The translations under genes and the position numbers were made by a program. Positions 3,434-54,181 of a DNA stretch of 64,000 nucleotides are shown in pieces. The DNA is taken from NCBI GenBank assembly GCA_014729025.1, contig WJKP01000014.1, positions 543 to 64,542 on the forward strand, in the 5' to 3' direction. Numbering within the stretch: position 1 is the stretch's first letter; each line of letters opens with the position of its first letter. Under the pieces are notes generated by a model. The model had not been told where the DNA came from. It searched no databases and saw only the letters and a list, made by a program, of their open reading frames with translations. This DNA comes from Candidatus Buchananbacteria bacterium. Lineage in GTDB: Bacteria > Patescibacteriota > Patescibacteriia > CAIXNZ01.

Positions 3434-4186
3434 TTAAATTTCACAAGGCACATCAACAAACTCCACATCTACTCCAAATTTATCTGCTAAAACTTTTCCT
3501 AGATTCTGTACACCCAATTTTTCAGTATTATAATGCCCTGCGTTTATAAAATTAATACCTATTTCTTCTACTGCGCGAACAACTGACTCGCGCACATCAC
3601 CTGTTAAAAAAGTATCACAACCGGCTTGAGCAAAAGCTTTAAAATCTGGAGAGGCACCACCGGAAATAACACCGATTTTTTTTACTTTATCAGGTCCGGC
3701 AGCAATAGAATATGAATCAGTCTGCAGCTTTTCATTAACCAATTTAACAAAATCAGTCAAATTCATTTCGGTTTTTAATTCTCCGATAAAACCAATATCA
3801 AGCGGTTCTGTTTTTTGAGTAATACCCAAAATTTTACAAAGACTAATATTATTACCGATTTCCGGATGAGCATCCAAAGGCAAATGAAAGCCCATTAAAT
3901 TCAATTCATTTTCCAATAATAATTTTAATCTATTTTTATACAAACCGGTTATTTGTAGGCTGCTTCCCCAAGTACCAGAAAAAAGCCCATGATGAACAAT
4001 CAGCATATCAGCTTTTTTAGCAATCGCCTGTTTGATTAATTTTTGTGATAAACTGACTCCAGTTATAATCTTGTTTATTTCTAACTTGCCTTCAACTTGC
4101 AAACCATTATGACATTTATCTTCAAACTCATTCACCCTCAAATATTCCTCACAAAATTTTACAATTTTATTTCTCTCAACAGTCAT
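3434..4186 (-). CDS. Nif3-family dinuclear metal center protein (YqfO/YbgI-like)
   Basis: 250 aa; NGLQVEG...ADMLIVHHGLF motif typical of the NIF3 family. Confidence 0.8.
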   Translation of the reverse strand: MTVERNKIVKFCEEYLRVNEFEDKCHNGLQVEGKLEINKIITGVSLSQKLIKQAIAKKADMLIVHHGLFSGTWGSSLQITGLYKNRLKLLLENELNLMGFHLPLDAHPEIGNNISLCKILGITQKTEPLDIGFIGELKTEMNLTDFVKLVNEKLQTDSYSIAAGPDKVKKIGVISGGASPDFKAFAQAGCDTFLTGDVRESVVRAVEEIGINFINAGHYNTEKLGVQNLGKVLADKFGVDVEFVDVPCEI

Positions 4187-4187
4187 A

Positions 4188-5228
4188 TTAAAATTGATTT
4201 AAAAATCTCAAATCCCCTGATTGTAATAATCTAATATCATCAATGCTATATTTCATCATTACCAGCCTGGTAGTGCCCAAACCAAACGCGAAACCAGACC
4301 ATTTATCAGGATCAATCCCACCGTATTTTAAAACATTAGGATGCACCATACCAGAACCAACAAATTCAATCCAGCCTGTTTGTTTGCAAACCGAACAACC
4401 ATTACCCTGACAAATCAAGCAGCCAAAATCCAATTCAAAACCAGGCTCAACAAAAGGAAAATAACCCGGTCTTAAACGAACCTTAACTTCTTGTTTAAAA
4501 ATCGCTGATAACATTTCTTTCATAACTGCCACCAAATTGGCAATGGAAATATCTTTATCAATCATTAAACCTTCCAATTGATAAAAAGTATGATCATGAG
4601 AAGCATCAGTTGCTTCATTACGAAAAACCCGGCCTGGCACAACACAACGCAAAGGCGCTCCGTATTTTTGCATAGCCCTTACCTGAACCGGTGAAGTATG
4701 CGTACGTAAAACTAATTTTTCTTTACCTGAATTTGGTAATTCTTCTACATAAAAAGTATCCTGAGCATCACGCGCCGGATGCCAAGACGGAATATTCAGA
4801 GCTTCAAAATTATAATAATCAGATTCCAATTCTGGTCCGTCCAAAATCATAAAACCCATTGACTTGAAAATATCTTCCAGTTCAGTCTGAATTTGAGTCA
4901 TGGGATGTAAATGGCCTAATTTATATTTATCAATATTCAAAGTTACATCAATAAAATCTTTGTCCAAATTTTTACTTTGATCTTTTTCCAATTCAGCCCA
5001 TTTTTGATCCAAAGCCGAACCGATTTCTTCTTTAACTTGATTGACTAAAGTACCAAATTTGGGCTTCAAATCATCTGAAACTTCTTTAACATCTTTAATT
5101 AATTTTGCTAATTCCCCGCTTTTTCGGGAAAAATATTTATTACGAATCTCTTGCCATTCCTCTGAGCTTTTTATTTCTTCAATTTCCTCAAAAGCTTGCT
5201 CTTTTATTTTTTTTATATTTAACTCCAT
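4188..5228 (-). CDS. pheS: Phenylalanine--tRNA ligase alpha subunit
   Basis: 346 aa; class II aaRS motifs (FRNEATDASHDHTFYQLEGL, GSGMVHPNVL). Confidence 0.93.
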   Translation of the reverse strand: MELNIKKIKEQAFEEIEEIKSSEEWQEIRNKYFSRKSGELAKLIKDVKEVSDDLKPKFGTLVNQVKEEIGSALDQKWAELEKDQSKNLDKDFIDVTLNIDKYKLGHLHPMTQIQTELEDIFKSMGFMILDGPELESDYYNFEALNIPSWHPARDAQDTFYVEELPNSGKEKLVLRTHTSPVQVRAMQKYGAPLRCVVPGRVFRNEATDASHDHTFYQLEGLMIDKDISIANLVAVMKEMLSAIFKQEVKVRLRPGYFPFVEPGFELDFGCLICQGNGCSVCKQTGWIEFVGSGMVHPNVLKYGGIDPDKWSGFAFGLGTTRLVMMKYSIDDIRLLQSGDLRFLNQF

Positions 5229-5333: not shown

Positions 5334-6443
5334 CTATTGAAAAAAACCGCCAAAAATTCCAGCAAAATCAACGTAACGCAAAACGTCCTGAAAAGTTACC
5401 ACAATTACCAATAACATTAAAAGTGAAAAACCAATCATGTGGATCAAACCTTCAACTTTTTGACTGACTGGTTTATTACGAATTTTTTCAATTGCCAAAA
5501 ATACCAAACGACCACCGTCCAAAGCCGGAAAAGGTATAAAATTGATTATAGCTAAATTTAGAGATAATAAGGCAGTAAATTGCAATATATAAATAAAACC
5601 TAATTGGGCCACCTGACCTGTTAAAACTGCTATACCAACCGGACCAGAAACCTGGACGCCGACTGGCTGGCCAATCACTAAATTTTTAATTATACCGCCA
5701 AAAGCAAAAACGATTTCTTTGGTTAAAACTCCGGTTAATTTAAAACCATGCCAAACTGCTTGATGAATAGGATAAGACACTATGCCAGTCTCAACTAAAC
5801 CAATGCCAACGCCACCTCGGCCATTACCAATATCAACTACTTCTATTTCTTTAGTTAAAACCTGATCATCTCTGGCAATTTTATAAGTAACTGTTTGCCC
5901 GATTTTATCAGAATTATATTCAATTAAATTACTAACACCCTTGATTTCCTGTCCGTCAACTGCCAAAAGCTGATCTCCCAAGTCAACCCCGGCTTCTTGA
6001 GCTGGTTTATCATCTAAGACAGAAACAACTTGCACCCGATAATCTTTAACTAATCCTTGTTCCAACGCTTCTTGATCTACAGCCTGTGGCAAACCAATCA
6101 AAAAACCAATTGACAATAAAACAGCACATAATAAAAAATTCATAAAAACACCGGCTGATAAAACAATCGCCCTTTTCCACGGCTTTTTATAGGCAAAACT
6201 ATCTGGATCTTCTCTATTACCGCCTTCTTCACCTTTAATTTTGACAAAACCGCCCAAAGGTATCCAATTAACTGAATAAACAACTCCATCCTTGCCTTTT
6301 TTAGACCAGGCTCGAGGCGGAAAACCAAAGCCAAATTCCTCAACTTTCATGCCCATTTTTTTAGCAGTAATAAAATGGCCAAATTCATGAACAAAAACTA
6401 ATAAGCCCAGTATAATTATAAAAATCAATACAGTTGTAAGCAT
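5334..6443 (-). CDS. rseP: RIP zinc metalloprotease RseP (site-2 protease)
   Basis: 369 aa; HEFGHF zinc motif in TM1, PDZ domain, C-terminal NFIPFPALDGGR motif. Confidence 0.85.
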   Translation of the reverse strand: MLTTVLIFIIILGLLVFVHEFGHFITAKKMGMKVEEFGFGFPPRAWSKKGKDGVVYSVNWIPLGGFVKIKGEEGGNREDPDSFAYKKPWKRAIVLSAGVFMNFLLCAVLLSIGFLIGLPQAVDQEALEQGLVKDYRVQVVSVLDDKPAQEAGVDLGDQLLAVDGQEIKGVSNLIEYNSDKIGQTVTYKIARDDQVLTKEIEVVDIGNGRGGVGIGLVETGIVSYPIHQAVWHGFKLTGVLTKEIVFAFGGIIKNLVIGQPVGVQVSGPVGIAVLTGQVAQLGFIYILQFTALLSLNLAIINFIPFPALDGGRLVFLAIEKIRNKPVSQKVEGLIHMIGFSLLMLLVIVVTFQDVLRYVDFAGIFGGFFQ

Positions 6444-7381: not shown

Positions 7382-8725
7382 TTATTTAATTAATTGCAAA
7401 ATTTCTTTAGTTTTTTGATCAACCAATTTTTGTGTTTTGGCTTCAAGATTTAAACGGATAACCGGTTCAGTATTTGATTTGCGTAAATTAAAACGCCAAT
7501 CATCATATTCAACGGAAACACCGTCAATATGATCGACTTTCCCGTCTTGATATTCTTTTTCAATTTTTTGCAAAACAGCATCTTTATCTTTGACTTGTTT
7601 ATTGATTTCACCTGAATTAGGATAATTTTTACGATAATAATCAGCTATCTGGGAAATTTTTTTATCTGACAAACATAATATTTCTAAAATCAATAAAAAA
7701 GGGATCATACCATTGTCAGCATAAAAATTATCTTTAAAATAATAATGACCGGATGTTTCTCCTCCAAATAAAATATCTTCTTTTCTCATCGTATCTTTAA
7801 TAAAAGCATGGCCCGGTTTATTAATAATCAATTGCCCGCCTAATTCATTGACCACATCTTCAATTGCCCAAACCAATCTGACATCACATAAAACTTTTTG
7901 CTTGGGCTGTTTGCCTAAATAATGCTTAGCCAAAATAGCTGTAATATAATAAGCGTCAATATGCTCTCCTTTTTCATCAAAGAAAAAACAACGATCAGCA
8001 TCAGCATCCCAAGCCACTCCAAAATCAACTTGTTCTTTTTTTACCAAACTTCCCACTTCTTTTCTTCGTTCAAAAATTTTGGGATCAGGTCTGCCTTTAG
8101 GAAACCCCCCGTCAGGCTGAAAATTCAATTCAACTATTTCGATTGGCAGACCTTCTAAGATTTTTTTCAAAACAATTCCAGCCATACCAAAATTCGCATC
8201 AGCCACAATTTTCATTGGTTTGATTTGTGTAATATCAATAAAAGCAAGACAATGATTAATATAATCGTTTAAAATATCTTTTTTTATAATTTGACCTTTA
8301 GTCGGCTCTATTATTTCTTCTTCCTTTAAGGCTTGTTTTTTTATATCCATAATACCAGTATCAGCTGAAACGGCTATGGCTTTTTCTCTGACAAATTTCA
8401 TACCATTATATTCAGCTGGATTATGAGAAGCTGAAATTGTAATGCCACCGCCATAACCATAATTAGCTACTGTAAAATACAACATATCAGTTGAAACCGT
8501 GCCAATATCAATAACATCGTACCCGGCATTGGTAATCCCCTTGGCAGCCGCCTGCCATAAACCGGGGGAAGAAAGACGAACATCTTTACCCAAAACAATC
8601 GCCCCGTCAGGCTGAAAAATTTTCAAATAAGCCTGAGCAATTTTATAAGCCGCTTTTTCATTTATTTGTTCTGGATAAAGACCTCTGACATCATAAGCCT
8701 TAAAAATTTCCTGATTAATTGTCAT
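7382..8725 (-). CDS. Phosphomannomutase/phosphoglucomutase (alpha-D-phosphohexomutase family)
   Basis: 447 aa; active-site TISASHNPAEYNGMKF and GDADADR metal-binding loop. Confidence 0.8.
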   Translation of the reverse strand: MTINQEIFKAYDVRGLYPEQINEKAAYKIAQAYLKIFQPDGAIVLGKDVRLSSPGLWQAAAKGITNAGYDVIDIGTVSTDMLYFTVANYGYGGGITISASHNPAEYNGMKFVREKAIAVSADTGIMDIKKQALKEEEIIEPTKGQIIKKDILNDYINHCLAFIDITQIKPMKIVADANFGMAGIVLKKILEGLPIEIVELNFQPDGGFPKGRPDPKIFERRKEVGSLVKKEQVDFGVAWDADADRCFFFDEKGEHIDAYYITAILAKHYLGKQPKQKVLCDVRLVWAIEDVVNELGGQLIINKPGHAFIKDTMRKEDILFGGETSGHYYFKDNFYADNGMIPFLLILEILCLSDKKISQIADYYRKNYPNSGEINKQVKDKDAVLQKIEKEYQDGKVDHIDGVSVEYDDWRFNLRKSNTEPVIRLNLEAKTQKLVDQKTKEILQLIK

Positions 8726-25154: not shown

Positions 25155-27101
25155 TTAAATATCAATTTCTTCCACTCCACCGCCTGTTTTAGGCGGAGTT
25201 TTGGGTTGACTTTCAGCAGATTCAGCTACAGCACCGCCTGATTCTTCTTCAAATTCCCTTTTTGAAGCTTCAATCTCTAATAATTGTTTGGGGTCAGTCG
25301 TAATCAATTGATCTTCACTGTATGAAGCCACTATTTTAATTGCCGCATGCTTTCTACCGGCAAAAAAGATACCTTCACCAACACCACATTCCAAAAGTAA
25401 GTATTTCTCGCCTTCAGTCAATAAAAATACTTTTTGAATATTATCAATCGCTGCAGGTGATTGCTTTAATAGTAATTGCAAAGCTGAATTGGTTACAATT
25501 GCGCGGCCATAAGGACTGTTCAAAAAATCATTTACATCCTGGGTAATAGTAGTTACACCTAAATAATATTTTCTACATCTTTTTACTAAAGCATAAATAA
25601 ATTTTGCTGAATCTTCATGTGTCATTAACCACCAAGCTTCATCAATTACTAAAATTCTTTTCTTTACTTGAGAACGTACTACATTCCAAATATAAGTTAC
25701 GATCGTATATATAGCTATTGGCCTTAATTCATCTTCCAAATCTCTAACGCTAAAACAAACCAACTGATTTCTCATATCAACATTAGTCGGCTGATTAAAT
25801 AAGCCGGAAAAAGTCCCTTCAGTATATTTTCTTAAACGTAAACTCAAATCTTCAGCACCTTCCATGCCTTCCAAAATATTCTGCAAATCCTGCATAATTG
25901 GCGGTTCAATTTTTGCTAAATCAGCTTGTGGCGTAATATCTTTTGAAGCATAAGTTTCTATTAAAGCACGATCCAAAATTGAATCTTCTTCGGTTGTTAA
26001 ATCACCGAGCATTAAACGTAACAAACCTTTTAAAGAAATTACACTGCTTCTAATAATATCTTCTGCGCTGGCATCGCCAACTCCTCTTGGCAAATCAAAC
26101 GGATTAATTTTTTCTTTTGACGCCAAAGAAATATTAACATAAGTTCCGCCAACTGCTTCGGATAAATGCGCGTATTCTCTTTCGGGATCAATAATAATTA
26201 CATCTGTACCTAGCATCATACTTCTTAAAACTTCCAATTTTACGGCGTAACTTTTACCGGCGCCCGAGGTAGCAAAAACAACATAATTGGCATTTTGCAA
26301 TGAAAATCTTTCAAATATAATTAAACTGTTATTATGCCTGTTTACACCGTATAAAATCCCCTCATCAGAAGTTAATTCTGATGAAATAAACGGAAAAGAA
26401 GAAGCAACCGGTGAAGTATTCATGTTAAAAGAAATTAAAAGCTCGTCATTAGCTAACGGAATAGTTGAATTTAAACCTTGTTCTGCCTGATATAAAACTT
26501 TTTTAGTATAAATTAGTTTGCCACCAAAAATTGATTCTACTTCTGAAGTCAACTCGTCTAAATCTTCTTCATTGTTGGCATAAATAGTTGTATATAATGC
26601 AAACTGAAAAAATCTTTCTATCCCTTGGGTTAAATCATCTCTTAATTTTTCAATATCTCGTAAAGCTGTTTCCAAAATAGGATCACGTGGCGCGCCTTTT
26701 TCAATATCTGACATTAATTGAGCCTGTAAATTACCCACCCGTTTTTTTAATTGTTTTAAAATTATTTCTGCTTTTACAGGATAAAAAAACATAGAAACAT
26801 CTAAGGTCTTGCTTAAACTAATTATTGGTGTAAACCAGCCAATAGTTATATAACGAGGATAATTTAAGACAAAAATAGTTCTAACATAAGTATCACCCAA
26901 AATAACATAAGTTGGTTTAACCTTAAAAGCAGCCGGCGCAATTAAATCTTTAACACTGACTTGTCCTTTACGATAAACTTTTTCTTCTTCTAAGGTAATC
27001 TCTTCTGCCTTAACGGCTGCTTCTGCGGATTTTTTTTGCTGATTTTTTTCTTCCTCCCCAGAAGATTGATTTTTTTGAGGTGTTGGTACTTCTAAAGCCA
27101 T
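25155..27101 (-). CDS. virB4: VirB4-family T4SS ATPase (Gram-positive TcpF/Orf16/PrgJ-like), ATPase part
   Basis: 648 aa; IAPAAFKVKPTYVILGDTYVRTIFVLNYPRYITIGWFTPIIS block typical of Firmicutes VirB4 homologs, Walker A SGAGKSY, Walker B VIDEAWWLM, TITQDV motif. Confidence 0.8.
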   Translation of the reverse strand: MALEVPTPQKNQSSGEEEKNQQKKSAEAAVKAEEITLEEEKVYRKGQVSVKDLIAPAAFKVKPTYVILGDTYVRTIFVLNYPRYITIGWFTPIISLSKTLDVSMFFYPVKAEIILKQLKKRVGNLQAQLMSDIEKGAPRDPILETALRDIEKLRDDLTQGIERFFQFALYTTIYANNEEDLDELTSEVESIFGGKLIYTKKVLYQAEQGLNSTIPLANDELLISFNMNTSPVASSFPFISSELTSDEGILYGVNRHNNSLIIFERFSLQNANYVVFATSGAGKSYAVKLEVLRSMMLGTDVIIIDPEREYAHLSEAVGGTYVNISLASKEKINPFDLPRGVGDASAEDIIRSSVISLKGLLRLMLGDLTTEEDSILDRALIETYASKDITPQADLAKIEPPIMQDLQNILEGMEGAEDLSLRLRKYTEGTFSGLFNQPTNVDMRNQLVCFSVRDLEDELRPIAIYTIVTYIWNVVRSQVKKRILVIDEAWWLMTHEDSAKFIYALVKRCRKYYLGVTTITQDVNDFLNSPYGRAIVTNSALQLLLKQSPAAIDNIQKVFLLTEGEKYLLLECGVGEGIFFAGRKHAAIKIVASYSEDQLITTDPKQLLEIEASKREFEEESGGAVAESAESQPKTPPKTGGGVEEIDI

Positions 27102-49149: not shown

Positions 49150-49523
49150 ATTAAATTTTCCTTAATAACTAAAATCTAAAAGATTCTAGCTAAATTACTT
49201 AAGTTTAATTAAAAGTTATAAAGGTAGCTAGTAAAATTAGCTATTTTATCTCCCTTTATAGATATACCCTCATTTTGCAATAATTTAATTTTTTTTGCAA
49301 CCCCTAACGGCTAATTTACCACTTTTTGATCATTCCGCACTACTCGGTGACAAGGTATTTTAATTGGTTTTTGTTTTTTTATTTAAAGTATCACCAACTA
49401 CCCTGGCTAGTCTTTTTTGCCTAATTTTAGTATTAAAATAGGATGAATTGTTATTTTTCTCTTAGGTATTTGTTTAAATAAATCAAAAATTTTTAATTCT
49501 AAATCAGTTATTTTTAAATTATA

Positions 49524-49811
49524 TTAAATAGTCCCTAATTGCTGCAAAGTTTCTAAAACTGGCGTATAAATTTTTAAAAAATCCTGAAAAAACGGGATTA
49601 AATATAAAAGCGCTAAAATTATTGGTATTACTACAATTAAAAATCTAAGAAAATTCATAAACTGAAATCTTTTAAAATCTTTTTCTAGCTTTTCGATCTT
49701 ATCAAGTAATAACTCTGTCTTTTGGGTGTTTTGTTTAATTAAAGTTTCTAAATCTTGTTTATCTTGTTTCTTTTTTTGTTTTGGCATTATAAATTTTCTC
49801 TTATTTGACAA
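49524..49811 (-). CDS. Small hypothetical membrane protein
   Basis: 95 aa; one TM, overlaps the nrdG 3' end by 25 nt. Confidence 0.3.
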   Translation of the reverse strand: MSNKRKFIMPKQKKKQDKQDLETLIKQNTQKTELLLDKIEKLEKDFKRFQFMNFLRFLIVVIPIILALLYLIPFFQDFLKIYTPVLETLQQLGTI

Positions 49812-50488
49812 TTTTTAACATATTTTAAAGCAAGTTTTTTTAATTTTTGTAATTCTTGGCCACTAAAAGATTGCTCATTGGCCAAATCAGGATTTAAAGT
49901 AATTTTATTATTAAAATTCTGTAAAAAATAAATTTTAGCTCCTTTTATTATTTTAGCAATTTTTTCTATTTCTTCCAAATTATGGAATTTAGGCAAAACA
50001 GTTGTCCGAAATTCATAATTAAGACCTGAATTCATAATAAGTTTAATTGTTTTTTGAATCTTATTAATATCAACTTTAACTCCACAAACTTGTGAATAAT
50101 TTTCTAAAGAAGCTTTAACATCCATAGCAATAAAATTAATTAATTTTTTATCAATTAATTCCTGTAAAAAATCGGGGCTGGTTCCATTGGTATCTAATTT
50201 AATTTTATAATCTAATTTTTTGATTTTTTGTAAAAAATCAATGACTTCAGGAAATAATAATGGTTCTCCCCCACTTACACAAACTGCCTCCAAAATACCT
50301 TGTCTTTTTTTTAAATAATCAAAAAATGCCTGGTTACTCAAATATTTTTTATCAGGTTCAACTTTTATTAATTCAGGATTATGACAATAATGACAAAGAA
50401 AATTGCAGCCAACCAAAAAAACCGACGCCGCTAATTTGCCGGGGTAATCAATTAAAGTTACTTTTTGCCAACCACCTATTTTAATCAT
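49787..50488 (-). CDS. nrdG: Anaerobic ribonucleoside-triphosphate reductase activating protein (radical SAM)
   Basis: 233 aa; CNFLCHYCHN CxxxCxxC cluster motif. Confidence 0.88.
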   Translation of the reverse strand: MIKIGGWQKVTLIDYPGKLAASVFLVGCNFLCHYCHNPELIKVEPDKKYLSNQAFFDYLKKRQGILEAVCVSGGEPLLFPEVIDFLQKIKKLDYKIKLDTNGTSPDFLQELIDKKLINFIAMDVKASLENYSQVCGVKVDINKIQKTIKLIMNSGLNYEFRTTVLPKFHNLEEIEKIAKIIKGAKIYFLQNFNNKITLNPDLANEQSFSGQELQKLKKLALKYVKNCQIRENL

Positions 50489-50756
50489 AATTTTTGTTAA
50501 TAAATAGCCAAAGAAATTAGTTAAATAAACTAATACCTAACTTTCCAAAAACCTAACTAACATCCTGACCCAAAAAACTAAACATCTAATTTTATCTTAA
50601 ATTAAAAAACCAGCCTCTGCAAGTCAGTTTTAAATACAGCCAACATCTAAAAGTACTAATAATTTTAATACTCTTACAAATTAACTATATCGACTGCCTG
50701 ACCAGAGACTGGTTTTATTTAAAGAACTATAAAATTCCTCCTTAATTTAAAGAACA

Positions 50757-50897
50757 CTACTCGGATAGCTGTTTGTTAAATTCTTTCCTATCAGCAAATT
50801 CTGCGCGTTTTCCTTTGTTCCATTGGTTGACTGGTCTGATATAACCAACTACCCGAGAATAAACCTCGCAAGGTTGTCTTACCATTTTCGTGTTCAT
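50757..50897 (-). CDS. Stand-alone glycyl-radical peptide corresponding to the NrdD C-terminal domain (46 aa)
   Basis: Hand translation MNTKMVRQPCEVYSRVVGYIRPVNQWNKGKRAEFADRKEFNKQLSE; RVxGY glycyl-radical motif and WNxGKxxExxDR tail typical of NrdD C-termini; own SD AAAGGAG 6 nt upstream; below the 60-aa ORF cutoff. Confidence 0.6.
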   Translation of the reverse strand: MNTKMVRQPCEVYSRVVGYIRPVNQWNKGKRAEFADRKEFNKQLSE

Positions 50898-50949
50898 AAC
50901 GCTCCTTTAACTATCTATTTGTAAAAAAACAGATAGTTTATTTTAATAA

Positions 50950-53004
50950 TTATTGATTATTAATAATTGACTGCTCTGCTTCTGCTTTTTCTGTATAACC
51001 TATTTCCTGATCACATTTTGGACAGAAAAAATGCTCACCAGCAATATAACCATGGATCGGACAAATTGAAAACGTCGGCGTAATTGTAAAATAGGGTAAG
51101 TGATAATTTTCAGCGATTTTCTTGATTAATTTTTTGGTTGCTTCTATACTGGGCATTTTTTCACCAATAAAACCATGCATAACCGTACCTCCAGTATAAC
51201 GTGTTTGCAAGCCGTCTTGCAAATCTAAAGCTTCAAAAATATCATCAGTATAATTAACTGGTAATTGTGAAGAATTAGTGTAATAAGGATCAGCGCCTTG
51301 TTCCCGGTAAGCTTTTTCATTAGCGACTATAATATCGGGATATTTTTGTTTATCAGCCTTGGCAAAACGATAAGTCGTACCTTCTCCCGGAGTTGCTTCT
51401 AAATTATATAAATTATTGGTCTCATTTTGATAATCCATTAATTTATCTCTCATAAAATCTAAAATTTCTTGGGCGGCTTTATTACCTTCGGCAGTAGTAA
51501 TATCTTCACCGATTAAATTTAAAACCGCTTCATTCATACCGGCAATACCAATGGTATTAAAATGATTTTTCCAATACTCACCAAATTTACTCTTAATGTC
51601 TTCCAAATAATATTTTGAATAAGGATAAAGACCTTCTTCAGTAAATTTTTCAACAACTTTTCTTTTCAAATCAAGGCTGGTTTGGGCAATTTTCATTATT
51701 ACCTCTAAAGAGTCTAAAAATTCTTTTTTGTCTTTAGCCTGATAACCAAGTCTGGGTAAATTAATTGTGACTACACCAATTGAACCAGTCAATGGATTAG
51801 CCCCAAAAAGCCCGCCACCTCTTTTTCTTAATTCGCGATTATCCAATCTTAAACGACAACACATACTTCGGGCATCTTCTGGTTTCATATCAGAATTAAC
51901 AAAATTGGAAAAATAAGGAATGCCATATTTTGATGTCATCTCCATTATCTTATCAGCGACTTCAGTATCCCATTTAAAATCCTTAGTAATATTATAAGTT
52001 GGAATCGGAAAAGTAAAAACTCTTCCAAACGCATCGCCTTCAGTCATAACTTCAGTAAAAGCCATATTAAAAATATCCATTTCTTTTTGAAATTCTTTAT
52101 AAGTTTTTTCTTGAAACTTACCGCCAATAATTACTGGCTCGTCTTTCATCATTTTAGGCATGCTTAAATCCATTGTAATATTAGTAAACGGCGTTTGAAA
52201 ACCAACTCTGGTCGGTACATTCATATTAAATAAAAATTCCTGAATACATTGTTTAACATCTGCGTATTTAAGATTATCATAAGCAATAAAAGGTGCTAAA
52301 TAAGAATCAAAACTGGAAAAAGCCTGGGCTCCAGCTGTCTCACCTTGTAATGTATAAAAATAATTAACAATTTGACCTAAGGCCGTACGTAAATGTTTAG
52401 GTGGCTTGGAACTGACTTTACCCGATACTCCGCCAAAACCTTTCATTAATAAATCGCGCAAATCCCAACCGCAACAATAAGCTGATAAAGTTTGTAAATC
52501 ATGAATATGTAAATCAGCATTAGCATGGGCATCCCTTACTTCTTCAGGATAAACTTTATGTAACCAATAATGGGCAGAAACAGATGAAGCAACATGATTA
52601 TTCAAACCTTGCAAAGAAAAAGCCATATTAGAATTTTCTTTAACCCGCCAATCACTTTGCACCAAATAACCTTCCATTAAAGCATCAGAATCAATTAATG
52701 ATTTAAAGTCTCTAATTCTGGCATGTTGATCACGGTATAAAATATAAGCTTTAGCTGTCTGAATTTGTTTATTTTTAATCAAAGTCGCCTCCACAATATC
52801 CTGAACTTCTTCAACTGCCGGGATACTTCTTTCATGAAACCTTTTATTCAACTCTTTTTCTACTGCCAACGCCAATTTTTGGGCTTTTTTCTTGCTCGGA
52901 TCACCAATGGCTTCCATTGCTTTATAAATAGCTTCTTCTATTTTAGGCAAATCAAAATCAACAATTCGATCATCGCGTTTTTTTATCTTGAAAATTTTGC
53001 CCAT
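50950..53004 (-). CDS. nrdD: Anaerobic ribonucleoside-triphosphate reductase catalytic subunit (class III), lacking the glycyl-radical tail
   Basis: 684 aa; N-terminal ATP-cone, class III RNR core, C-terminal Zn ribbon (CPIH...CPKC), ends at TAA without the RVCGY motif. Confidence 0.9.
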   Translation of the reverse strand: MGKIFKIKKRDDRIVDFDLPKIEEAIYKAMEAIGDPSKKKAQKLALAVEKELNKRFHERSIPAVEEVQDIVEATLIKNKQIQTAKAYILYRDQHARIRDFKSLIDSDALMEGYLVQSDWRVKENSNMAFSLQGLNNHVASSVSAHYWLHKVYPEEVRDAHANADLHIHDLQTLSAYCCGWDLRDLLMKGFGGVSGKVSSKPPKHLRTALGQIVNYFYTLQGETAGAQAFSSFDSYLAPFIAYDNLKYADVKQCIQEFLFNMNVPTRVGFQTPFTNITMDLSMPKMMKDEPVIIGGKFQEKTYKEFQKEMDIFNMAFTEVMTEGDAFGRVFTFPIPTYNITKDFKWDTEVADKIMEMTSKYGIPYFSNFVNSDMKPEDARSMCCRLRLDNRELRKRGGGLFGANPLTGSIGVVTINLPRLGYQAKDKKEFLDSLEVIMKIAQTSLDLKRKVVEKFTEEGLYPYSKYYLEDIKSKFGEYWKNHFNTIGIAGMNEAVLNLIGEDITTAEGNKAAQEILDFMRDKLMDYQNETNNLYNLEATPGEGTTYRFAKADKQKYPDIIVANEKAYREQGADPYYTNSSQLPVNYTDDIFEALDLQDGLQTRYTGGTVMHGFIGEKMPSIEATKKLIKKIAENYHLPYFTITPTFSICPIHGYIAGEHFFCPKCDQEIGYTEKAEAEQSIINNQ

Positions 53005-53034
53005 TGTTTCAATATTTAATAATTAATTATAATC

Positions 53035-53499
53035 TTATTTTTTTTTCTTTTTTTTAAATACGGCATTGATTTCTTTTTGAAAAGTCGCCAAATCTTTAAA
53101 AGCATGATAAACAGAAGCAAAACGAATATAAGCGACTGGATCTTTCTTTTTTAATTCTTTCATAATAATATCACCTACTTCTTGACTGGTAATCTCAATT
53201 TTTTTGGTAGCTTGAATCTGTCTTTCTATTTTATTAACCAAAATTCGGAAAGCTTCGTCTTTAATCGGCCGTTTTTGAAAAGCTTTTCGCAAACCCTTCT
53301 CTAGCTTCTCACGAGAATAACCTTCTTTATAGCCATTCCGCTTAATAACCATTAATTCCAATAATTCCACTTGCTCATAAGTACTAAAACGAAAACCGCA
53401 TTTCAAACATTCTCGTCTGCGCCTAATAGTAATACCATCAGAAGCCACACGCGAGTCAATTACCTTGGTCTCTTTATAATTACAGACAGGACATTTCAT
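53035..53499 (-). CDS. nrdR: Transcriptional repressor NrdR
   Basis: 154 aa; MKCPVCNYKETKVIDSR zinc ribbon plus ATP-cone. Confidence 0.92.
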   Translation of the reverse strand: MKCPVCNYKETKVIDSRVASDGITIRRRRECLKCGFRFSTYEQVELLELMVIKRNGYKEGYSREKLEKGLRKAFQKRPIKDEAFRILVNKIERQIQATKKIEITSQEVGDIIMKELKKKDPVAYIRFASVYHAFKDLATFQKEINAVFKKKKKK

Positions 53500-53559
53500 A
53501 GCTTTTTTAAAGAAGTAAAAATCTTACAAAATTAATTTATTTTTTATTTTTTCAAATTA

Positions 53560-53575
53560 ACACTATATTTAGTAT
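53560..53575. promoter_or_regulatory. NrdR box 1 (ACACTATATTTAGTAT)
   Basis: Matches the acaCwAtATaTwGtgt NrdR operator consensus; upstream of nrdR-nrdD. Confidence 0.6.
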
Positions 53576-53592
53576 TTCCTGTGATTATTATA

Positions 53593-53608
53593 ACACTATA
53601 TCTAGTAT
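53593..53608. promoter_or_regulatory. NrdR box 2 (ACACTATATCTAGTAT)
   Basis: Near-identical second box 33 bp downstream of box 1 (start to start); tandem arrangement typical of NrdR operators. Confidence 0.6.
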
Positions 53609-53800
53609 GAATAAATCTTTTGTCAATAGCCTGGCAAGGCCTTACTGAAAACTCACTAGAAATTAACTTTAAGACCTAAAAATAGGGTTTTTAAAAGTGT
53701 CGTAAAAATTATTATAAATTATATAATAATAAATCTGTGGATAACTTGCTCAAAATTTATTTTATTTAGTTATGCAAAACTGCACAAATTACAATACTAA

Positions 53801-54181
53801 TTAAAAACAATGCTGCGCTTTTAAATAATCGTCTAAAGTGGGGCTGGCACCTTGTTTAATTTGATTAACTCGTTCGGCGCCTAAAGCTTCTACAGCGCAT
53901 TGTTCTTGTTCCGGTGTAATTTCAGTTGGCAATCCTTGCACGTCAACCCCGGATGTTTCCAACAAAATCTCTTGTTCATTGGAAAGTAAAGGATGATCAT
54001 AACTGCTTGGTTCACCTGATTGTATTTTTGAATAAGCATCTGGAAATTTAGTCACATCAACCCCGTAAGGTTTAATAATAATTAAAGCAATCACGACACC
54101 AATCACTATAATAATAAAAATTACAGCGATGATACCAATTACCATAAAAAATTTTCGCCAAAAATTTGTTTCTTTTGCCAT
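53801..54181 (-). CDS. Hypothetical membrane-anchored protein
   Basis: 126 aa; N-terminal TM, no motif. Confidence 0.35.
   Translation of the reverse strand: MAKETNFWRKFFMVIGIIAVIFIIIVIGVVIALIIIKPYGVDVTKFPDAYSKIQSGEPSSYDHPLLSNEQEILLETSGVDVQGLPTEITPEQEQCAVEALGAERVNQIKQGASPTLDDYLKAQHCF

Follow-up and report, generated by a model that had tools for sequence, protein, structure and literature searches.

A class III ribonucleotide reductase of Candidatus Buchananbacteria with its glycyl-radical loop encoded as a separate 46-amino acid protein

Introduction

To our knowledge, glycyl radical enzymes have been described as single polypeptide chains that carry the radical in the C-terminal domain, and the only known exception that works in trans is GrcA/YfiD, which acts for pyruvate formate-lyase (PFL). 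Oxygen cleaves glycyl radical proteins at the radical glycine, and the activase of PFL accepts short peptides as well as free YfiD. Here, we describe a class III ribonucleotide reductase (RNR) locus of a Candidatus Buchananbacteria bacterium (contig WJKP01000014.1), in which the open reading frame (ORF) of the catalytic protein NrdD stops before the glycyl-radical loop and a separate ORF of 46 amino acids (aa) encodes this loop. The locus lies in a stretch of 64,000 nt that was analysed as a whole and is hereafter called the window. Based on the comparisons described below, we consider it highly probable that the two ORFs encode a genuine, obligate two-subunit class III RNR, in which the radical-bearing 46-aa piece acts in trans. 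Our search of the open-access literature turned up neither a split class III RNR nor an autonomous radical protein of the NrdD type. A review of June 2026 describes spare parts as known only for formate lyases, and lists their existence for any other glycyl radical enzyme as an open question.

The one-piece class III RNRs (NrdD/NrdG), such as those of phage T4, E. coli, T. maritima (4COI), P. copri (8P23) and S. thermophilus (9D3X), share with the window the barrel, the ATP-cone, the zinc ribbon, the RVVGY...WNxGKxxExxxR loop and an activase of the NrdG2 type, and the chemistry is presumably the same. In the window, however, a break in the polypeptide separates the zinc ribbon from the Gly loop, a 46-aa chain with its own translation signals carries the radical glycine, and the large chain ends in an extra acidic tail. 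The spare parts of PFL, GrcA/YfiD and Y06I of phage T4, resemble the 46-aa peptide in being small stand-alone glycyl-radical loops that are expected to be activated by the parent activase and to work in trans with a large core, and phage-encoded versions exist of both GrcA/YfiD and the NrdD-type peptide. The initial annotation of this DNA had drawn the same parallel; the analogy holds as far as a small stand-alone radical-loop protein is concerned, but the peptide does not belong to that family. It stems from NrdD, has a length of 46 aa against 127 aa, and shows no match to PF01228 (the PFL/GrcA Gly_radical domain, IPR011140) at E <= 1, PF13597 (NRDD) being its only Pfam hit. Moreover, because the large protein lacks a radical glycine of its own, the peptide appears to be the sole radical loop in the window and thus an obligate subunit rather than a spare; a parent with its own radical domain was found at other loci (L227 and L244, see below).

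RNRs of other classes are also known to be encoded in pieces. The class I NrdA of Aeromonas phage Aeh1 is split by a homing endonuclease, and it resembles the present case in that a functional RNR is formed from separately translated fragments. In Aeh1, however, a mobile endonuclease gene is inserted between the pieces, while the spacer described here measures 52 nt and is free of mobile elements, and the split is widespread and of old age. The class II RNR NrdJa/NrdJb of Pseudomonas aeruginosa likewise encodes its catalytic chain as two consecutive genes with the C-terminal module on the second, which carries a zinc finger and a Cys pair (PMC4520616). In contrast to the locus described here, that enzyme is B12-dependent and has no glycyl radical, its break point is a different one, and its second chain is large rather than a 46-aa peptide.

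Results and discussion

NrdD is distributed over two ORFs

All coordinates are positions in the window, and the nrd cluster lies entirely on the minus strand (Table 1). The nrdD product ends in ...CPIHGYIAGEHFFCPKCDQEIGYTEKAEAEQSIINNQ, followed by TAA, 20 residues past the second pair of zinc ligands. The RVxGY motif was not found on this polypeptide, and is carried instead by the separate 46-aa ORF, whose product is MNTKMVRQPCEVYSRVVGYIRPVNQWNKGKRAEFADRKEFNKQLSE. The two ORFs do not share a reading frame: that of nrdD runs into three stops within the spacer and that of the small ORF contains a TAA three codons ahead of its ATG, and therefore no single indel could join them. The start of nrdG at 50488 lies 268 nt past the stop of the small ORF. 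This distance, as well as the 52-nt gap, the Shine-Dalgarno (SD) sequence AAAGGAG and the 46-aa ORF, was given correctly in the initial annotation, and its description of a 684-aa nrdD that stops after the zinc-ribbon region without the radical motif is borne out by the ORF coordinates and by Pfam.

When we compared the two products with protein families, the large ORF matched positions 1-529 of the 562 positions of the Pfam NRDD model (PF13597; E 2e-185, 618 bits, cutoff 26.2) in addition to an ATP-cone at the N-terminus, and the 46-aa ORF matched positions 531-562 of the same model (E 1.3e-10, 41 bits, cutoff 26.2). In NCBIfam, the large ORF reached 1066 bits with NF006126 (cutoff 548) and 549 bits with TIGR02487 (cutoff 326), and the small ORF matched just the C-terminal ends of several NrdD models. 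The class I and class II RNR models found on the large ORF only the shared ATP-cone (residues about 2-125), far below their cutoffs. On the T. maritima NrdD (4COI), residues 99-609 are covered by the large piece and residues 613-644 by the small piece. These alignments agree with the earlier reading of the peptide as a glycyl-radical signature with the WN-GK-E-DR tail. Judging from them, no part of NrdD is missing, and the chain is simply interrupted between the zinc ribbon and the glycyl loop. The break adds about 20 residues on the side of the large subunit and 9 on the side of the small ORF. The glycyl-radical domain is thus only half moved, with the Gly loop on the small ORF and the zinc ribbon left on the large protein.

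Both pieces retain conserved residues. The large subunit is about 66% identical to the fused homologues and keeps the residues that are invariant in the alignment, including C177 and C382/C383. The latter two, the finger-loop cysteines in SMCCRLRLD, are invariant across 40 sequences and constitute the predicted thiyl-radical site. The C/H/C/C pattern of the zinc ribbon (C648, H651, C661 and C664, predicted to be the ligands) is common to split and fused homologues, and the ribbon aligns to the CxxC...CxxC of P. copri NrdD. On the small ORF, E11, Y13, S14, R15, V17, G18, Y19, P22, W26, N27, G29, K30, E33 and R37 are invariant. No family in Pfam, NCBIfam or PHROG is devoted to the small protein, which matches only the C-terminal end of full-length NrdD models, apart from one weak match to phrog_4132 (function unassigned).

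Table 1. Features of the nrd cluster in the window.
Feature	Position	Strand	Remarks
nrdR (154 aa), RNR transcriptional repressor	53035..53499	(-)	Pfam Zn_ribbon_NrdR 1.7e-20 and ATP-cone 1.2e-20; immediately upstream of nrdD
nrdD core (684 aa), large subunit with ATP-cone, barrel of ten strands and zinc ribbon, without glycyl-radical loop	50950..53004	(-)	
Zinc ribbon C648-x2-H651 ... C661-x2-C664, large subunit	51013..51063	(-)	Read from the sequence
Acidic 20-residue C-terminal tail DQEIGYTEKAEAEQSIINNQ, large subunit	50953..51012	(-)	
IGY (conserved x-G-[YF] motif), large-subunit tail	50995..51003	(-)	Possibly a vestigial Gly loop
Intercistronic spacer (52 nt) with stops in the nrdD frame	50898..50949	(-)	
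12-bp stem-loop just 5' of the SD of the small ORF	50909..50938	(-)	Kept only in the closest clade
Shine-Dalgarno AAAGGAG	50902..50908	(-)	Sole clear SD in the nrdR-nrdD-small ORF-nrdG cluster
Small subunit (46 aa): NrdD glycyl-radical loop and WN-GK-E-DR C-terminal segment	50757..50897	(-)	
Predicted radical site Gly18, small ORF	50844..50846	(-)	
Long imperfect stem-loop with subsequent U run, small ORF-nrdG spacer (268 nt)	50602..50715	(-)	Possibly a terminator or attenuator
nrdG (233 aa), radical S-adenosylmethionine (radical-SAM) activase	49787..50488	(-)	NCBIfam TIGR02495 NrdG2 216.5 bits, cutoff 131

The split is conserved among related genomes

We then examined the 80 closest NrdD loci (60-94% identical) on contigs of one genome per GTDB species, using tblastn and ORF analysis. 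The sample consists mostly of Patescibacteria, and also contains Orenia, Halanaerobium, other Bacillota and one Woesearchaeote; isolate genomes are among them. The nrdD gene was split at 72 of the 80 loci, fused at 7 and cut by the contig end at 1, so that the search of related genomes proposed in the initial annotation finds the same layout in most of the nearest species. A truncated nrdD is accompanied by a small ORF in 72 of 73 cases. Among the 73 split loci, nrdG is adjacent in 72 and the order nrdD-small ORF-nrdG occurs in 68. The small ORFs encode 41-73 aa and always have an initiator of their own, which is ATG except for GTG in two. Across the close clade, the ratio of non-synonymous to synonymous polymorphism (pN/pS) of the small ORF is 0.066, with the synonymous sites near saturation, which indicates strong purifying selection. 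Many contigs of the comparison are titled 'uncultured Gammaproteobacteria bacterium' (L001, L003, L012 and others); their NrdDs are 66-94% identical to those on contigs whose titles name Patescibacteria or other candidate-phyla groups, and the titles thus look like placeholders.

A second gene order was observed in Halanaerobiales (the isolate Orenia metallireducens, Halanaerobium and relatives), where nrdD and the small ORF are separated by a complete nrdG. A 3.7-Mb contig of a large-genome bacterium shows the three-gene layout of the window as well. Taken together, the 72 split loci, the occurrence of all three relative frames, the varied spacings, the low pN/pS and the second gene order strongly support the proposal that the radical glycine resides on a separately translated small protein.

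One of the fused forms bears on how the two chains are related. At L042 (1057-3244), the junction reads ...CPKCDEDD-MSPQKLERQKCEVYSRVVGY... (CDEDD-MSPQKLERQKCEVYSR), with the initiator Met and the leader of the small ORF retained, and a near-identical stand-alone counterpart of its small part exists elsewhere (P0061). L042 looks like a secondary re-fusion of a split ancestor, that is, a Rosetta-stone protein, and such a natural re-fusion would argue that the two chains work as one enzyme. In a neighbour-joining tree, built to see if the split had a single origin, the fused forms occupy four scattered positions. Since the deep nodes of this tree are unreliable, the re-fusion at L042 is the only conclusion that we draw from it.

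Fused NrdDs of Paceibacteria/Minisyncoccia are about 1020-1140 aa long (P0131, P0132, P0138, P0149 and others), and most of them contain intein and LAGLIDADG domains (PF14890, PF14528). Mobile elements are common in the NrdD lineage of these proteins.

Structure model and alternative explanations

To obtain a structure model, the two pieces were concatenated as a pseudo-fusion and submitted to AlphaFold2 with fused homologues as the alignment. The model shows the class III RNR fold, with a predicted TM-score (pTM) of 0.73 and target-normalised TM-scores of up to 0.75 against class III RNR structures. The junction (667-688) is disordered, the predicted local distance difference test (pLDDT) values of the large-subunit tail are below 50, and those of the Gly-loop segment are 65-78. 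The fold is compatible with a two-chain enzyme and may be taken as weak evidence for it.

Here, we need to consider several observations that weigh against an obligate two-subunit enzyme. The confidence of the model is low at the finger loop and at the junction, and the model is a pseudo-fusion rather than the prediction of a complex. Many small ORFs of other lineages lack an SD motif upstream, although these lineages may not use SD sequences. Finally, the tail of the large subunit contains a conserved xG[YF] motif, which may represent a vestigial Gly loop or serve in docking. This motif, mostly E-I-G-Y (E-[IM]-G-[YF]), is located 4-6 residues past the last zinc Cys in 67 of 73 split large subunits, and it is aligned to the RVVGY of the fused forms by MAFFT as well as by the NCBIfam profile.

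The tail motif also speaks for a different explanation, in which the large protein is self-sufficient, for example through the Gly of the E-I-G-Y tail, or is otherwise employed, and the small protein is only an auxiliary spare or a regulator or decoy of NrdG. Layouts with a true spare part do occur elsewhere (L227 and L244). However, the tail glycine lies only 5 residues past the zinc ribbon, compared with 12-16 in the fused forms, and the tail lacks the R at position -3 and the entire RPVxxWNxGKxxE segment. Furthermore, the large subunits of Halanaerobiales and Shapirobacteria do not have the xG[YF] motif, yet the small ORF is present, and a small ORF goes with essentially every truncated nrdD. 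We therefore regard a self-sufficient large protein as improbable.

We next considered programmed recoding, by which a frameshift, read-through or hopping over the hairpin as in T4 gene 60 would yield one polypeptide. The 52-nt gap, the stem-loop, the stop beside the last sense codon and the SD-like element superficially recall the 50-nt bypass of gene 60. Nevertheless, a matched pair of take-off and landing codons is absent in the window, where the last codon is CAA and only AGG AGC GTT stand between the in-frame TAA and the ATG. Across the 73 loci, moreover, gap and frame vary freely: the relative frames 0, 1 and 2 of the small ORF occur at 24, 24 and 25 loci, and its distance from the nrdD stop ranges from an overlap of 53 nt to 1007 nt downstream. 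In Halanaerobiales the pieces are separated by the whole nrdG, the hairpin is restricted to one clade, and the small ORF has its own initiator at every locus. Based on these observations, recoding seems very unlikely.

For a metagenome-derived, AT-rich sequence (32% GC) with homopolymer runs in the spacer, one might suspect an error of sequencing or assembly, or a one-piece nrdD that recently became a pseudogene. Against this, the three stops in the nrdD frame come together with a frame change, the split recurs in independent species assemblies including isolates with differing spacers and frames, and the small ORF is under the selection described above, with its own start codon and, in the window, its own SD. 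Neither explanation is thus credible to any extent, and the earlier conclusion that the different frames do not reflect a single-base frameshift is confirmed by the stops in both frames and by the related species. Post-translational rejoining by a split intein or by protein ligation, which the inteins of related fused NrdDs (PF14890, PF14528, homologues of about 1100 aa) might bring to mind, has an equally negligible probability, as the tail (20 aa) and the leader (9 aa) are far too short for intein halves, match no intein model and are poorly conserved except for xGY.

The radical loop also occurs as a stand-alone gene of phages, viruses and chromosomes

With the 46-aa peptide as query, a word-indexed search yielded 585 proteins, the best 120 of which are all 39-78 aa long. 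An exhaustive profile search of 1.84 billion cluster representatives gave 5170 matches at E <= 1e-3, including the C-termini of full-length NrdDs; among the best 150 of these, 149 are proteins of 48-149 aa, the remaining one being a full-length NrdD. Unrelated PA0069 radical-SAM proteins of 361 aa fall into the 90% cluster of the window peptide as well, which is probably a clustering artefact.

When IMG/VR was scanned with the alignment of the small proteins, 80 loci were found, and 66 of them carry the motif in a short ORF (41-163 codons from stop to stop). At these 66 loci (L085 and others in L086-L163), neither an NrdD barrel nor nrdG was detected within 5 kb on either side, with a hidden Markov model for the barrel that detects 57 of 58 fused controls. 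The neighbours of these orphan ORFs encode terminases, portals, head-morphogenesis proteins and HNH endonucleases. On the 86-kb viral contig L085, for instance, a 43-aa copy (4985-5129) that is 80% identical to the window peptide sits among genes for a head-tail adaptor, a tail terminator and a major tail protein. Many of the phage versions are about 90-160 aa long and have a CxxC...CxxC ribbon of their own. The GenBank phage collection gave 3 matches only, IMG/VR being far richer.

The archaeal virus ANMV-1 (KP703175.1, L247; 38.5 kb) contains a comparable gene. Its 144-aa ORF (25525-25959) consists of the zinc ribbon and the Gly loop only, and the 38.5-kb record contains no NrdD barrel and no NrdG. 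The original paper on ANMV-1 took this ORF, annotated as 'anaerobic ribonucleoside triphosphate reductase', for an encoded RNR. Orphans are found on chromosomes as well: in metagenome-assembled genomes of Spirochaetota (L083:5001-5165 and L084:3776-3940), a 54-aa ORF (KRIPTEVYSRVVGYYRPV...) is flanked by leuS and thiamine-biosynthesis genes, with no nrdD or nrdG nearby.

In two cases, a stand-alone loop accompanies a complete enzyme. At L227 (29-1628), a full-length fused nrdD is followed after about 20-50 nt by a stand-alone 86-aa ORF with ribbon and Gly loop, and then by nrdG. At L244 (1-1181), a full-length fused nrdD is followed at a similar distance of about 20-50 nt by a 108-codon stop-to-stop frame with ribbon and Gly loop. 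Judged by their gene content, these two loci represent what appears to be a true spare-part layout for a class III RNR. A third locus, L166, resembles them but is frameshifted.

Two loci carry identical copies of the small ORF, which may reflect gene dosage or an assembly repeat. In L055, the copies (3758-3968 and 6025-6235) flank nrdD, and in the viral contig L119, they lie 3.5 kb apart (4982-5162 and 8523-8703).

Proposed mechanism and origin

Gene structure, homology, conservation, selection and distribution of the two ORFs are observed as described above; from these, we infer activation in trans, docking and replaceability of the peptide. In the enzyme that we propose, the 684-aa protein would contribute the ATP-cone, the zinc ribbon and the catalytic barrel, including the finger-loop cysteines, whereas the glycyl-radical loop, with the predicted radical site Gly18 in RVVGY, and the conserved segment at the C-terminus would come from the 46-aa protein. 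Translation of the latter would start at its own ATG, which follows the sole strong SD of the operon. NrdG would abstract hydrogen from Gly18 of the peptide, as it does on the C-terminus of a one-piece NrdD, and the peptide loop would insert non-covalently into the barrel beside the finger-loop Cys (C382/C383) and make the thiyl radical for reduction of the nucleoside triphosphates. The net charges of the two ends at the break are opposite, with a mean of -3.6 for the large-subunit tails and +1.7 for the peptide leaders. This suggests electrostatic docking, in which the basic leader and the acidic tail may help to bring the two proteins together.

With the radical glycine, where oxygen cleaves, on a separate peptide, the damage would be limited to a part that is cheaply replaced. 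The 5-kDa peptide would be re-made and re-activated, while the 79-kDa core would be kept. The strong SD on the small ORF alone, the phage orphans and the spare copies of the L227 type would fit the logic of a consumable part. Function in trans is supported by the 66 phage loci and ANMV-1, in which an orphan radical domain occurs without barrel or activase, and by the extra domain at L227 and L244.

As to the origin of the split, the most economical route would be a duplication of the radical domain, giving a full-length nrdD and a stand-alone copy, followed by complementary decay. The large chain would have kept the ribbon and a vestigial loop, and the small chain would have kept the loop and lost the ribbon. 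This sequence of events is suggested by the alignment of the tail xG[YF] to RVVGY and by the layout of L227 and L244.

A broader proposal would extend these findings beyond the window. The glycyl-radical cofactor of class III RNR might, in many lineages, be a free-standing, exchangeable and horizontally mobile mini-protein, and such mini-proteins might form a large family that has so far been overlooked and has three uses: an obligate small subunit of a truncated NrdD, as in the window, much of Patescibacteria, Halanaerobiales and a DPANN archaeon; a true spare beside a full-length nrdD; and an orphan auxiliary gene of phages and archaeal viruses, whose product would plug into the NrdD core of the host, employ the host NrdG and sustain synthesis of deoxyribonucleotides during infection or after oxygen damage. 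We give this general picture an even chance.

If this broader proposal is true, it would be the first case of spare parts serving a glycyl radical enzyme that is not PFL. A natural two-chain class III RNR would make the spare-part question directly testable, and the cultured Orenia and Halanaerobium allow proteomics. A radical carrier of 5 kDa would also be a handy substrate for studies on activation by NrdG, radical transfer into the barrel and oxygen damage. In addition, the two-chain layout affects how RNR and oxygen tolerance are understood in minimal-genome Patescibacteria, and it points to a new class of auxiliary genes in phages. The databases already contain the genes themselves, under uninformative names. 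In RefSeq, the small proteins of Orenia and Halanaerobium (45-48 aa), such as WP_143786648.1 and WP_114457115.1, are named 'anaerobic ribonucleoside-triphosphate reductase' and the copies from the candidate phyla radiation 'hypothetical protein', so that the annotation of thousands of small ORFs labelled in these two ways would be concerned.

RNA hairpins and expression signals

The spacer stem-loop (50938..50909) consists of 12 bp including one G-U (AACTATCTGTTT/AAATAGATAGTT) and a 6-nt loop, with a minimum free energy of -11.5 kcal/mol, and abuts the SD AAAGGAG (50908..50902). The initial annotation had placed this hairpin correctly but had given a shorter stem. Of the 13 closest relatives, 12 have a hairpin at this position. 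Because MAFFT-based alignments misplaced the structural register of subclades and yielded no pairs, covariation was assessed by counting pairs anchored on the stem; canonical pairs were present in 106 of 108 cells, with double-sided changes at 6 of 9 positions. We also considered the hairpin as a general part of the split and rejected this, since only 14 of 73 loci show it at a significant level, which are essentially those of the close clade, and more distant split loci lack it. It is therefore a clade-specific intercistronic element, which possibly serves in processing, in stability or in the control of translation.

A scan for sigma-70 promoters and terminators gave 22 sites against 18 expected and was uninformative. 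An Rfam scan of 49500..54000 at E <= 1 gave no match for the spacer hairpin or the long hairpin. The region between the small ORF and nrdG (272 nt) folds at -74.6 kcal/mol, with z = -6.7 compared with shuffled sequences. The long stem-loop in this region (50602..50715) is a single copy in the window and, by acting as a terminator or attenuator, it may uncouple nrdG from the preceding nrdD and small ORF.

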